The position numbers and the translations under genes were made by a program. From Octopus vulgaris (taxonomy: Eukaryota): DNA of 64,000 bases. The stretch covers positions 36,952,001-37,016,000 of the forward strand of contig OX597832.1 in assembly GCA_951406725.2 (NCBI GenBank). The letters run 5' to 3'. Numbering within the stretch: position 1 is the first letter of the stretch; each line of letters opens with the position of its first letter. The notes beneath the pieces are model-generated. The model was not told the origin of the DNA and made no database searches. It saw nothing but the letters and a program-made list of their open reading frames with translations. Positions 23,994 through 44,130 of the stretch are shown in pieces.

Positions 23994-25299
23994 GTAACCA
24001 AAATGTTAACTGTGGTTGTGTTGTGGTTATCATGTTCATTTTATGCCATTTCTGTGTTCTTCATCACCTCTATAGTATCTTCTCACCAAAATGCATTCAA
24101 CTGTAATACTATTTATAGTAGGAGGTCATCTCTCCAAATGTAACGTTAGTTTTCTGACCACTGCACAGCCTGTGTGCAACCAGGGCATTCCTTAATTCTC
24201 TGAGGTTTAGCAACCGTTTATATCTATCACCAACCAAATTACAAAACCTCTTTATAGTCATTTGATCTATTAGAAATAAAAGTCAAATCTCTCTCAAATT
24301 CTACTTTAAAATAAAAAAAAGAAGGGACACAGTGTATAAATGTAAATATCAACTCTGCTCGGAAAGAAAAAAAAAAAACAGAATAATCACAGCTGAAAGG
24401 TTTTTGCTTTAGAATGATAAACAATAATAGATGTATATCATAGTATATTAAGTATACTCTTATAGGGTGGATTGATTTAGAAATAGCAGCCAAATGTTTC
24501 AGTCTTTAATCCCATTGAATAATGTAGTTCATGTAAAATGCCTGAATAAAAGATATAGTCATAGCTAGGGTATCATTGATCATTTGCCTGTTTGGATTGG
24601 GTCTGATCTGAGGCTAAAACAACAGCTACAACCACCTACCATGCAGTACCTGTGGTTATAACTGGATCAGGGCTGGCTTTACATCAAACACGATCACCTA
24701 CCCCTCATATGTCCATTTTTCATGTTGGCAGGACCTGGTGAGCTGCAGGGCAGCATTGGATTCCACTGTCAGCTTTGGCATGGTTTTTACTGCTGGATAC
24801 CCTTTACTAACACCAACCACTTTACAGGGTGTACTGGGTGGGTTTTTTTGTTCTAACAGCAGGAAGGAAAAAAGGAAAGAGCTTCCTTTACTAAAATGGA
24901 GTTTTTAGTGTTTGAGAGGTTAAGAAGGGCAACTGGTCCAAGCCAGGTGTTGAGAAGTAAAAGTGTGATGGAAGGACCAGCCCAGGTGTCTTGTTGTAGA
25001 GGAAATACAAAGCTACCCTGTTTTATGTAAGGATGGGTGAGAGTAGCGGGAAAGAAGATGTAGACGGTGGTGATGAGATGCCAGAGCATCTCTGTGTACA
25101 AGAAGGTGAGTAAAAGAAAAGATGTAGCCGGGAGAGAGGGGTGGTTGCATACGCATGTGAGGGGAGACGAATATTATAGTGAATACACATCATTCATTTT
25201 CATTTGTTAATTTGATGACATCAAAACCTAAAATTGCTTTTCATCGTCATCTAACCTCACATTCGAATACAGTTGAATGAATTTTAATTTTGTGTCTCT

Positions 25300-25910
25300 G
25301 CTGTATGTAACAACTATTGCCAGGTCTGTATTACTGTTGTTGGCGAATCTCACAACAGTTTAGTGTTTCTGCTGTTTGTGACACCTATTGCAAGGTCTGT
25401 GTTACTGTTGTTGGTGTATCTCACAACAGTTTTGTATCTCTGCTATATCGTAGCAGCTGTTGTAATATCTGTATTACTGTTGTGATGTCTGTATGGCAGC
25501 CGTTGAGAGCTTGTGTTACTGTTGTCGGTATATTTCGCAACAGTAAAGTTGTATATGTTAATGTGTTTCACATGAATTGTTAGCTATGTGTTGTTACTAT
25601 GTATCTCACAACTGTTGTGAGTGTATGATAATCTCTCATAACAGTTCTATGTATGATATAGAATGTCTCAGTTGTTCGGTTGATAGTCTCTCACAATTGT
25701 TGTTAGGTATATCATTTTATAGTCTTTCACCAATTGTTGTTGGATATGTCATTTTATAATTTGTCACAGAATTGTTAGGTCTATGAGTTCAATATCTGTC
25801 TCACAATTGTTGTTAGGTGTGTCATTTTATATATAATCTGTTTCACAGTTGTTGTTAGTTCTATGATTCGATAGTCTCCCAGAAATGTTATTAGGTGTAT
25901 AAATCTCACA
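25300..25910. repeat. Degenerate tandem repeat (tctcacaa.tgttgttaggt / tgttactgttgt motifs)
   Basis: Recurring tctcacaa and tgttgtt motifs at irregular ~35-70 nt spacing. Confidence 0.75.
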
Positions 25911-36076: not shown

Positions 36077-36953
36077 GTAAGTAGTTTTATATTTTTTCTC
36101 CTAATAATATGGGTGTGATGGGAGTTCCCTGCTGTCTGAGATTTTGGGGCCTTAAAACAAGAAATAAAAGGTTATGTCATTTTATTGTTCAAGTTTATAT
36201 CAATTCTGATGGTTGATCATGTAATTTCAATGCTGTCTTAGGCTTTTCTTGGAAAAGATTGTGTAATGATCACCAATACTTGTGTCATATAGTAAACTAC
36301 TACTACTACTACCACAAACTGGTTAATCAGATGTGATACAGTTTGTTATATCTGAGACATTGGTTGACCAATCACAGCTGGGATGACAGACACATATTGT
36401 AAGATGGCAAATAGGTAAGTAAGACTACTGAAAACCAAACATCTGAATGTTTTAAATGACATTTATTTACTTCTGAGAAGCAATATTCATAGTCTGGTGT
36501 ATAGACTATACCACAATACCGTTCTAACAGAACATCCACATTTAAGTGGGGATGAATATTGCTTCTCAGAAGTAAATAAATGTCGCCACTGGACAATATG
36601 TGGAATTGTGAAGACAGGTTGAGGCAGTCTCACACAACAGGCTTCCATACAATTTCTATCTTCCAAATTTTATTCACAAAGCATTGGTCAACCCAAGGCT
36701 GTAGGGAAGGACACTTGTCCACATTGCCACATAGGTATGGATCAAACCTGAAACTACATGGTTTTGAAGCAAACTTCTTAACTACAAAGCTATGCCTTCA
36801 CCTTTTATAAACATGTAGCCACACATGTTATATACATGTGTGGGTTGTAAAATCTCCCATGTAATCAGTGTAGATACACAATATTGATACTAGCTTGATA
36901 TACATTATAATCTATTAGCAGAAATACACTCCCTTTCCCCCTCATCATCCCAC

Positions 36954-38196: not shown

Positions 38197-38692
38197 GTAG
38201 GCGCCCACTCTCCACATTTATTTACACTTTTCCTTCTATGATGCGTATTTCTGCTCAACCCTATTCTTCCCAACTGGATGTTTGCCGATATACCCCAGTT
38301 ACCATATTTTATTATAAGATGGGTATGATTAAAATGTTGTGCCTATGTTTTTAAATTTAATAAGACCATGCTTAATCTTATGAAAATAGTCACTGTATAG
38401 ACTCCTTCAAAGGTTTAGATCCATGAGTCAGATGACCAAAATATCTCCAGTCATTGTTGAACAGTGGACAGACCTTAGGACTACACATAACAAAAAGACT
38501 TGAGCTCTGTTGACTAAAAATCATAAACGTCTGATGTTTAGATTGGAGACACTACCTGTCTTTAATACTTGGGAAGATGGTTGAACAACTTGAAATTTAA
38601 GTATTAGTTACCTACACATACACAAACACATCTTCAGCTTGATTAAAATGAAACTATGTTTAATCTTCTGTTTTAAAATGTTCTTTGTTCAG

Positions 38693-38802
38693 GGCAAACA
38701 CTGCATTTTGGACGTCAGTGGTAACGCAATCAAGCGGCTACAAGTAGCAGGATTATATCCAATCGCAGTTTTCATCAAACCCAAATCCGTGGAATCTATA
38801 AT
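38693..38802 (+). CDS. dlg1: dlg1 GK domain exon (110 nt)
   Basis: gttcag / AT|gtaagt. Encodes [36 protein letters not shown](M). Confidence 0.98.
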
Positions 38803-39074
38803 GTAAGTTGAACTTCTTTTTTTTTTTCCTTTGAGAATTAGAAGTCCTTCTTTGTGCTAATCACTCAGCTGTGAAGTGGAAGTAAAGATGCAAAGTAAGG
38901 CACTTTGCCTGAGACGCTCAGTTCAATTCTTGCCACAGACAATACTACATCATCTAATCATGTTAATTAATAGAGCTTAATTGATAAGCTTATAATTGGT
39001 GTAATTTCTACCAAATGTCTAACAAATCAAGACTGGATCCAGTGAAAGATGTGAGGTTTCCCTTTTTTTTTTTT

Positions 39075-39430
39075 TTTGTCTTTTACTTGCATCAGTCATT
39101 AGATTGCTACTATGCTGGGTCACCACCCTGAAGATTTTTTAGTTGAATGAATCAACCCCAGTAATTTTTTTTTTTAAGCTTGGTACTTATTCCATCAGTC
39201 TCTTTTGTCAAACCAAGTTATGGGGACATAAACACCATTTGTTAAGCTGTGGTGGAGGTCAAAGGCACACATACGATGGCCTTCTTTCAGTTTCTGTCTA
39301 ACAAATCCACTCACAAAGCTTTGGTCAGCCCAAGACTATAATTGGAGACACATGCCCAAGGTGCCATGCAGTGGAACTGAGCCCGAAATGATGTGGTTGG
39401 GAAGCTAACTTCTTACCACACAGCCATACC
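39075..39430 (-). mobile_element. SINE family B (full length) in GK intron
   Basis: Same organisation as the other B copies. Confidence 0.85.
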
Positions 39431-39820
39431 CAAGTTATTTTAATATTACTTTTACAAAATAGGTTGGATGTGAGAGCTTCACTTCACAACCAAAGGAAGT
39501 TTGTTTTTTTCCATAGTCAGTAGGTATGGCAACACCCATGACCTGTTTCAGGGCCTTCAAGACTGCAGGGAGGGAGAATGGTCTCCTCAAACTGGAAATC
39601 CAGCCTGAATACTTGCAACAGAGTGGACTCTGCTAAAGTCACCTCAGGTACCCAGGCAGTTGTGTTAAACTGGATATAAACAGTTGAGTCTGTTTCGTTG
39701 GATGTCATCATGTCCTTAGTTATCTCTACATGAATTTACTTCCTCTTCCCTATATGTAACCATCTACATGACGCTAGTCCCCCAGTTGTAGTCAACAGAT
39801 GCTGTCTATTTTCATTGCAG

Positions 39821-39912
39821 GGAGATGAATAAAAGGATCACAGAGGACCAGGCTAGAAAAACTCATGAAAGAGCAATGAAACTTGAACAAGAATTTGGAG
39901 AGTATTTCACAT
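39821..39912 (+). CDS. dlg1: dlg1 penultimate coding exon (92 nt)
   Basis: ttgcag / T|gtaagt. Encodes (M)[30 protein letters not shown](S). Confidence 0.97.
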
Positions 39913-40225
39913 GTAAGTAGTCGTCGTCTCCTTATTTCACATGTAAGTAGTCGTCGTCTCCTTATTTCACATGTAAGTAGTCGTCGTCTCCTTATTTCAC
40001 ATGTAAGTAGTCGTCTCTCCTTATTTCACATGTAAGTAGTCGTCGTCTCCTTATTTCACATGTAAGTGTCGTCGTCTCCTTATTTCACATGTAAGTATTG
40101 TCTCCTTATTTCCATGTAAGTAGTCGTCGTCTCCTTATTTCACATGTAAGTAGTCGTCGTCTCCTTATTTCACATGTAAGTAGTCGTCGTCTCCTTATTT
40201 CACATGTAAGTAGTCGTCGTCTCCT
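39903..40225 (+). repeat. 30-nt minisatellite, 11 copies, containing the exon 5' splice site
   Basis: Unit tatttcacatgtaagtagtcgtcgtctcct. Copies start at 39903, 39933, 39963, 39993, 40022, 40052, 40081, 40107, 40136, 40166, 40196. Confidence 0.99.
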
Positions 40226-41173
40226 ACGTTGTTTAACTGTTGCTGCCTCGACTTCCCGACTGGTTTGCCACATTATTTCACTGTAAGGTTCTCTTTCCCA
40301 GGAAAATCAAGAATCACTACCACGAATGGTAGGCCAAAATGACCAGGGCTCTCAGTGGTCTGGAAAACCAAGTAAACTTGGGATTGTCAGGGCATTTTTT
40401 TTCCTAGAGCTATAATTTATTTGCAATTAGTTGTCTTCTTAAACGAATTTATAAATTCTGCATTTCGTTCCATATCTACAATGGACTTGCCATTTCTGAA
40501 CTTCTGATCATTTCCATATCATGACATTCTGTGTGGTAACATTAGTATAGACATGGTTCAGCTGCTTCCCTACCAGTGCAGAAGGGCAGTTTTTACTTAG
40601 ATGTGGTCAGTGAAGTGTGTGTTTGTTTTTACACCACCTCAGATTTATGACCAAATTTTGGGAAGGAAGGGTTTTTTCCTATCATTCTTGTTAAATAACT
40701 TAGAACAGAAGGGAGAGTGGTCGTCACATTTTCAGGCTTTTCTTTCAGGTTGATGAAATTGATGTAGCTTGATTCACTACCTGGACCTCTAAAAGTGGAT
40801 GGCATTGAAGATCTGGCCCTGATATTTGCATCAATGAGCTCTGCTGAAGCTACCCAAAAACCACATTGTAGAGTGAAACTGGACAGCCTATTAAGTCCAC
40901 CATCCAAGAATCTATTGTCTTATATACAGCATTAGACTATCCTTGTGATCCAACATTGAGCTATACCCTCTTTCTTCTCCCATTCGATCACTGTGTCTAG
41001 CTACAAAACTGTCATCACACCTACCTTATTGTTCGTATTTTCCCCCAGTGTCTTATCCCTGGAGAGTTTCATTCTTCAGGGACTCTGTTCGGATCAATTC
41101 CTGCTAACCTTAGCTCCGTCTCTCCACTGTTTGCTGTCACTTTATGTCAACTTCTCTCTCCCTTCTCTTTCAG

Positions 41174-41280
41174 CTGTCGTACAAGGGGACACGGCTGATG
41201 AAATCTATGCAAAGGTCAAAGAAGTGATCCGTGACCAGTCAGGACCAACAATATGGGTGCCAGCCAAGGAAAAACTCTGA
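41174..41280 (+). CDS. dlg1: dlg1 terminal coding exon
   Basis: Pyrimidine tract + ttcag. Encodes (S)[34 protein letters not shown], the conserved DLG C-terminus. Confidence 0.98.
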
Positions 41281-41363
41281 AATTCATCTTTTATGATTAT
41301 CTAAATTGGAAAAGATTGAAAACAACATGCAAAGCAAAGCAAAATTTTCAATAACAATATACA

Positions 41364-41441
<78 letters not shown>

Positions 41442-43569: not shown

Positions 43570-44130
43570 GGAAGGTGGGCAATTGGCAGAATCGTTAAGG
43601 CATTGCAGAAAATGCCTTGCAGTTTTCCAGCTTGTTTCTGTCAAAAGACTGTGGCCATGCTGGGGCACTGCCTTGAAGAATTTTTAGCTGAATGAATCAA
43701 CCCTAGTACTTTTTTTTTTATTTTATTATATACCTGGTACTTATTCTATCAGTTCTTTGGCTGAACTGCTAAGCTACAGGGATATAAATAAACCAACACT
43801 GGTTATCAAGTGGTGATTGGGAGCAAACACAAACATACACACACGTATATACGACAGGCTTCTTTCAGTTTCTGTCTACCAAATCCACCCACAAGGCTTT
43901 TGTCAGCCTGAGATTGTAGTAGAAGACATTTGCCCAAGGTGTTATGTAGTGGGACTGAACCTGAGACCAGGCCATGCTGTTTATGCTCTGAGTTCAAATC
44001 CCACCAAGTCAGCCTGGCCTTTCGTTCTTTCAGGGTCAATAAGATAAGTACCAGTCAAGTGTTAGTCAACAGTATTAACTAATCCCTTTGCCCAAATTTC
44101 AAACCTTCAGCCTATGTTAAAAACAATTAT
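43570..44130. mobile_element. SINE B (-, ~43630-43970) nested inside SINE A (+)
   Basis: SINE A head (ggcagaatcgtta) at ~43585 resumes (ctgagttcaaatccc) at ~43985 after a reverse-oriented B copy. Confidence 0.75.

Follow-up and report, generated by a model that had tools for sequence, protein, structure and literature searches.

At the 3' end of the dlg gene of Octopus vulgaris the donor of the last intron is, as assembled, repeated eleven times in tandem, and the question that this locus raises is whether the additional donors take part in splicing and alter the Dlg protein, or whether they are simply discarded with the intron. The window (the whole stretch of 64,000 nucleotides analysed here) contains exons of the gene, and the assignment to dlg, which encodes the MAGUK protein Dlg and had been proposed in a preliminary description, is borne out by matches to fly Dlg and by octopus Dlg records. 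The exons that flank the repeat match fly Dlg (PDB 3tvt) with E values of 1.1e-29 and 3.6e-11, and one exon of 57 aa is 100% identical to the Dlg records of Octopus bimaculoides and O. sinensis. The exons encode the SH3/GK region and the C-terminus, and nine of them map to the O. sinensis protein P0007 (tblastn). When the donor at 39913 is spliced to the acceptor at 41174, the translation is identical to the tail of P0007, and an intron of the same position and phase is found in 11 genomic loci of other animals, all of them Dlg loci from metagenome contigs. The elements of the gene that matter for the argument are the following, where X9 is a presumed RNA run.

38693..38802, forward strand: dlg coding exon upstream of the penultimate one (GKHCILD...ESI), placed by tblastn with P0007; the 5' loose end of the X9 contig corresponds to its final 30 nt
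39821..39912, forward strand: penultimate dlg exon of 92 nt, ending in the 10 nt with which unit 1 begins; the X9 contig (depth 430.9) matches it with 0 differences
39913..39914, forward strand: authentic donor (donor 1), used in the X9 contig
39918..39920, forward strand: in-frame TAG, met when any later donor is used (EYFTCK*)
39913..41173, forward strand: last intron, 1261 nt as assembled
41174..41280, forward strand: last coding exon, (S)VVQGD...IWVPAKEKL*, the exon that matches fly Dlg 3tvt with E 3.6e-11

Other features of the window are recorded here in their own right. Residues 656-681 of P0007 (about 26) have no tblastn match in the 21 kb between 14672 and 35740, and they are likely to belong to short, alternatively used exons located between the SH3 and GK domains. 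Degenerate tandem repeats of 36-37/71 nt lie at 25288-25873, within a long dlg intron, and at 36458-36584 a dlg intron carries a perfect inverted repeat of 33 nt with a spacer of 61 nt, MITE-like in form, that could produce double-stranded RNA in the pre-mRNA. An interspersed repeat at 39062-39430, which we take to be SINE-like, is approximately 70% identical to copies at 393-757, 43631-43964 and elsewhere. The segment 39600-39645 matches well over 100 partial contigs per DNA run, with a summed depth of up to 15,000, and is the remnant of a very abundant repeat of which no other copy was found in the window. No Rfam match falls in 38600-41400.

The array itself stands out in the window. Tandem Repeats Finder (TRF) describes 39903-40225 as a repeat of period 30 with 11.0 copies and 95% matches, and its score of 597 is the highest of the 64 kb. 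Each unit consists of the last 10 nt of the 92-nt exon followed by the first 20 nt of the intron, so that the splice signal CAT|GTAAGT is intact in all 11 units; the eleven GT positions listed previously (39913, 39943, 39973, 40003, 40032, 40062, 40091, 40116, 40146, 40176, 40206) are all correct on recheck. Its parts can be listed as follows.

39903..40225, forward strand: minisatellite of 11 units (26-30 nt), in each of which CAT|GTAAGT is followed by a TAG, recognised by TRF and by 60-nt unit+unit contigs in runs X3, X7 and X9
40016..40112, forward strand: middle of the array, which holds all 7 deleted bases and has perfect 113-nt blocks on both sides
40273..40287, forward strand: possible decayed extra copy (tentative), 15 matches with one gap and a weak donor, ACT|GTAAGG

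A tandem repeat placed across the donor in this way is far beyond chance. Apart from microsatellites, no other stretch of the 64 kb is duplicated exactly head to tail with a period of 15-100, and echoes at exon edges were found at one of the nine dlg exons checked in the window, namely at the edge of the array. Measured against the donor consensus CAG|GTAAGTAT, the donors match at 9 of 11 positions and that of unit 7 at 10 of 11, while a G at -1 is absent from every one of them. In cephalopod records the codon split at the 39912 donor is T|CT (Ser), whereas most of the other animals searched have Ala and a G at -1, and it is for this reason that the octopus donor lacks the usual -1 G. The possible decayed copy lies 48 nt past the array; its score of 26 is equalled by 9 of 1266 background tiles, and it may be a sign that the array has existed for longer than the identity of its units would indicate. 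The segment 40226-40268 was also considered as a decayed unit and was rejected, given that 1778 of 2952 background tiles score equally well.

The first point to be settled is whether the repeat exists in the genome at all or is a single unit expanded by the assembler. Twenty of the 24 public runs listed contain the region, all of them as contigs, and four (X1, X3, X7 and X9) were aligned to 39440-39962, a span that comprises the left flank and the first two units. A contig of 60 nt that joins one unit to the next, with 0 differences, is present in three of these four runs: X3 (organism B, study P3), X7 (organism C, study P4) and X9 (organism A, study P6), that is, in three studies under three organism labels. 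The left-flank contigs of X3 and X7 stop precisely where unit 1 ends, which is what a branch in a k-mer graph predicts. A single unit would give one contig running straight through, and therefore a flank contig that ends at unit 1 together with the 60-nt loop contig means that there are at least two head-to-tail copies. Against this, the noise in the middle of the array, made up of deletions only, does indicate that the local sequence is imperfect, and X1 (80% of the run read) yielded the single-unit piece alone, with neither a left-flank nor a loop contig, which says little either way. One of the three studies may be the source of the window sequence, which would leave two as independent; X3 and X7 carry a 6-nt insertion at 39738 relative to the window, a difference that reflects either another haplotype or polymorphism, or a deletion error in the window assembly. 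At least two perfect units are thus confirmed as real in independent data, the array as first described is not a single-unit artefact, and, unless each of the three loop contigs is itself an artefact, the notion that the genome has one unit deserves almost no credence.

How many units there are is a separate matter. Seven of the 11 are identical, and units 4, 6, 7 and 8 deviate solely by deletions (of 1, 1, 4 and 1 nt), while the sequence is perfect for exactly 113 nt inward from each edge. The deletions in the middle are likely to be long-read errors left uncorrected where short reads do not reach, in which case the true units may all be identical. Once the depth of the listed contigs is subtracted, what remains in the bins of each run is a single-unit piece of 30 nt (misfit 0.08 or less), presumably the start of the right-flank contig. 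The ratio of the depth of the loop contig to that of this piece is 3.6 in X3 (71/19.6), 3.3 in X7 (23.2/7.0) and 2.7 in X9 (22.8/8.3), whereas the array as written should give 6.3, and one made of 11 perfect units 10. Read literally, these ratios suggest approximately 4-5 units in the other samples, with the proviso that contig depth is no copy number. Either the length varies between animals or the assembly has over-expanded the array.

According to the second of these options, the array exists but is shorter than assembled, and the true allele has about 4-5 identical units. The low depth ratios and the deletion-only differences confined between two perfect 113-nt blocks are in its favour; on the other side, other repeats can raise the depth of the flank, the 113/113 pattern is also expected from a true 11-unit array polished by short reads at its edges alone, and allele length may simply vary between animals. 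This possibility, which we consider rather doubtful although deserving of attention, concerns the count only and is compatible with an array of little consequence. The array had also been called young and probably polymorphic: the high identity of the units stands (7 of 11 identical), whereas polymorphism is hinted at by depth ratios of 2.7-3.6 against 6.3-10, depth being no copy number. A repeat common to three organism labels could be one that has been retained rather than one that is young.

Having established that the repeated donors are real, it is possible to ask which of them is used. In X9 a contig of depth 430.9 runs from the exon that ends at 38802 to 39821-39912 and from there to 41174, and this path corresponds to donor 1. 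At its loose ends the contig carries the final 30 nt of the upstream exon on one side and 41174-41203 on the other. Three pieces account in full for the depth bins of X9 (misfit 0.06), namely this spliced contig, the unbroken loop contig of 60 nt and a single unit of 30 nt. In X9, the sole presumed RNA run examined, no contig derived from a downstream donor was found; a piece with the donor-2 junction fits badly (misfit 3.7 against 0.06). Contigs do drop minor paths, and X9 is also devoid of an exon-to-intron path despite the presence of intron pieces at a depth of about 8. A minor form from donor 2, amounting perhaps to as much as tens of percent, would therefore be invisible in these contigs, and nonsense-mediated decay (NMD) would further hide the products of donors 3-11. 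Among the cephalopod Dlg records, 28 of 31 contain the region and all 28 end with the full 35 residues, although these are products of gene models, biased to full length, and do not imply that the array is present in those species.

The use of any other donor would have a well-defined outcome. It was proposed earlier that donors 2-11 all lead to a protein ending in ...EYFTCK*, at the stop TAG in 39918-39920, with the loss of 35 residues; translation confirms the truncation, and P0007 does have 35 residues after EYFT. The distances from the stop to the exon junction, given as 22 nt (donor 2) and 52 nt (donor 3), are also right, and they extend to 82 nt for donor 4 and to 285 nt for the farthest donor. 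The IWVP tail was described earlier as the strand that completes the MAGUK SH3-GK supramodule, and it would have a role in the pairing of SH3 with GK. GK-only crystal constructs match just the first 23 of the 34 residues encoded by the last exon; the truncation would therefore remove part of the GK domain together with the IWVP tail. Nothing usable on the IWVP strand or on the details of the fly alleles was found in PMC3335814, PMC9490041 and PMC2120992. Spindles are misoriented in flies with a dlg allele from which roughly a third of the GK domain is missing, according to the available part of PMC9986814, and it is on this account that a C-terminal truncation of Dlg would matter.

The earlier proposal was that the donors compete, so that copy number could set the share of dlg mRNA that is truncated or degraded. 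In splicing-regulatory tandem repeats (spl-TR, PMC10078293) and in unproductive-splicing rheostats, the isoform share shifts with repeat length. The geometry permits such a device, with identical donors and a stop 22, 52 and 82 or more nt before the junction; the depth ratios hint at length differences between samples; flies are affected when the C-terminus of Dlg is lost (PMC9986814, in part); and the genes 6-16 and CBS use two pseudo-sites, as mentioned second-hand in the available text of PMC1557585. X9, however, has no contig from a downstream donor. In addition, the closest human precedents speak against an effect of copy number. The 37-bp VNTR of F7 intron 7, tested in minigenes with 1-12 units, splices solely from the functional donor that lies farthest upstream (Borensztajn et al., 2006; PMC1557585), which is preferred even against stronger pseudo-sites, only perfect-consensus sites being able to compete; in the 25-bp VNTR of ABCA7 intron 18, the retention of one unit is 2 +/- 1% irrespective of VNTR size and rises under cycloheximide (De Roeck et al., 2018; PMC5954066). 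Both statements hold for the portions of the two reports that were available. The length of the ABCA7 repeat does alter the skipping of the next exon (PMC5954066, same portion), and such repeats are therefore not always inert.

The evolutionary evidence points in the same direction. An echo of the repeat was found at 0 of the 11 orthologous introns of other animals, and for this reason the array does not appear to be a conserved device. The comparison comprised 80 Dlg loci from metagenome contigs, 38 of them continuous across the junction, 11 with the intron and 31 unscored (29 without the motif and 2 continuous with Met); locus L076, inspected by eye, shows no repeat, and a 24-nt junction pattern had 0 matches in the metagenome contigs. 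Competition between donors and tuning by copy number are consequently unsupported, in view of the use of donor 1 in X9, the 28 of 28 full-length cephalopod records and the contrary F7 and ABCA7 precedent, and we consider a regulatory role of this kind improbable; control of Dlg output by copy number is, in general terms, possible and unsupported.

It is known that the cephalopod lineage carries out A-to-I editing heavily. The most far-reaching version of the proposal is a length-variable splice rheostat acting on the octopus synaptic scaffold, in which longer alleles would divert a measurable share of transcripts to donors 2-4, and transcripts from donor 2, exempt from the 50-55 nt rule, would encode a stable Dlg whose GK domain is broken. 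The reading frame is kept by donors 2-4. In the boldest form, the UAG, which lies in predicted unit-to-unit duplexes, would be turned into Trp by A-to-I editing, and the in-frame donors (+30, +60 and +90 nt) would insert 10-residue repeats into full-length Dlg. It is decidedly improbable that the array works in this manner.

A different function was also put forward, in which the array loads U1 snRNP, either as a sponge, as a guard against premature cleavage or as an enhancer of the splicing of the last intron. The ten extra sites do match the donor consensus at 9-10 of 11 positions. Ten U1 sites on the nascent RNA of one gene are, however, negligible with respect to cellular U1, and neither AATAAA nor ATTAAA occurs in the last intron (39913-41173) to be suppressed. 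Deleting or adding F7 units changed nothing, as far as the available text of PMC1557585 goes. The sponge idea is left unsupported by these observations, and a role in U1 loading seems very unlikely in any of the three forms.

The most probable reading is that the locus contains a real minisatellite of the exon-intron boundary, that the first donor is the one used, as in the assembled transcript, and that the extra copies leave with the intron and hardly affect the protein. Such an array could have originated in a chance tandem duplication of 30 nt across the donor, followed by slippage or unequal exchange. It would be tolerated by virtue of its position: unit 1 keeps the end of the exon intact, each added unit falls within the intron, and the duplication would survive selection for as long as the first donor wins. 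By extrapolation from F7, definition of the 92-nt exon would pair its acceptor with the closest donor, the first to be transcribed as well, and the identical donors further downstream would remain silent pseudo-sites. If the rule holds in molluscs, an F7-like outcome is to be expected, because the donors of the octopus array do not differ from one another and none has a G at -1. By analogy with ABCA7, CBS and 6-16, it is plausible that a few percent of transcripts leak to donor 2 or 3; the resulting EYFTCK* proteins or substrates of decay would amount to noise, on which copy number is likely to have no influence. The mechanistic precedent for this proposal comes entirely from mammals and amphioxus.

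Structural features that might have explained the duplication or the choice of donor were also considered. The edges of the array show no microhomology, and the idea that a DNA hairpin (GGAGA/TCTCC) triggered the duplication is unsupported (z 0.15). RNA structure as the determinant of donor choice was rejected: the z score of -4.45 obtained against ordinary shuffles falls to -0.88 against shuffled units repeated 11 times, 40 of 200 such controls being as stable as the array, and donors 1 and 11 are more open only with a folding window of 150, not with 80 or 400.

On its most likely reading, the array adds a cephalopod, and a conserved scaffold gene, to the known occurrences of "mirage" minisatellites that span a donor. 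It also offers a natural test of whether the F7 rule, by which the most upstream donor wins, holds in molluscs, and, because donors 2, 3 and 4 sit 22, 52 and 82 nt past one and the same stop, a natural test of molluscan NMD against the 50-55 nt junction rule; among the papers listed by a literature search on NMD, none was specific to molluscs. The importance of the locus would be greater only if allele length changed Dlg output, and no evidence for such a change was found.

The preliminary description did not identify this architecture as a known one; it belongs to a class already described in F7, CBS, ABCA7 and the mirages of amphioxus, judging from the available parts of those reports. Among the openly accessible papers listed by the literature search, none reports such repeats in a cephalopod. 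The octopus array displays four features of the mirage/F7-type class, namely a head-to-tail repeat with a unit longer than that of a microsatellite, the junction in the first unit, intact splice signals in the intron and an mRNA made from the authentic site (in one RNA run). The resemblance to F7 is close: in both, unit 1 spans the exon-intron boundary, identical donors recur in the intron and the most upstream donor is the one seen in use. The F7 unit has 4 nt of exon and 33 nt of intron, occurs in 5-9 units and is of proven polymorphism, and the exclusive use of its first donor was tested in minigenes (PMC1557585, available text), whereas the octopus unit has 10 + 20 nt, is followed by a stop 6 nt past donor 1, lies in the last intron of a mollusc gene and is accompanied by one RNA assembly. 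In ABCA7, as in octopus dlg, the donor is repeated in each unit, and use of donor 2 results in a premature stop and an NMD substrate; the ABCA7 units, on the other hand, begin at the GT, their alleles reach kilobases and their length drives skipping of the next exon (PMC5954066, in the part available). In octopus dlg the next exon is the last one, so that this route of skipping would be unavailable in the same form.

Other relatives have units of similar size and number that span a donor, among them CBS, 6-16, LMNB2 and PDGFA (PMC2630376, PMC1557585, in the parts available). The CBS repeat, a 31-bp VNTR designated c.1444_1467+7(16_21), has by its nomenclature a unit of 24 nt of exon and 7 nt of intron (PMC2630376, same limit). 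CBS and 6-16 are reported to use two pseudo-sites as well, while LMNB2 and PDGFA use the first donor only, according to second-hand mention in the available text of PMC1557585. In amphioxus, mirage minisatellites in Adh3, troponin C, BflGb6/9 and PGBD5 leave splicing undisturbed and are unstable in length (PMC3087553, PMC3902484, as far as their available text goes). The octopus array is likewise a tandem-duplicated exon-intron boundary in an invertebrate in which normal splicing is kept, and its unit falls within the 10-72 bp of Adh3; for the amphioxus repeats, instability both in length and in somatic tissue is reported, and they occur in several genes, as against one of nine dlg exons checked in octopus. 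The octopus array is, in short, a further case of a donor-spanning layout already described in human and amphioxus genes.
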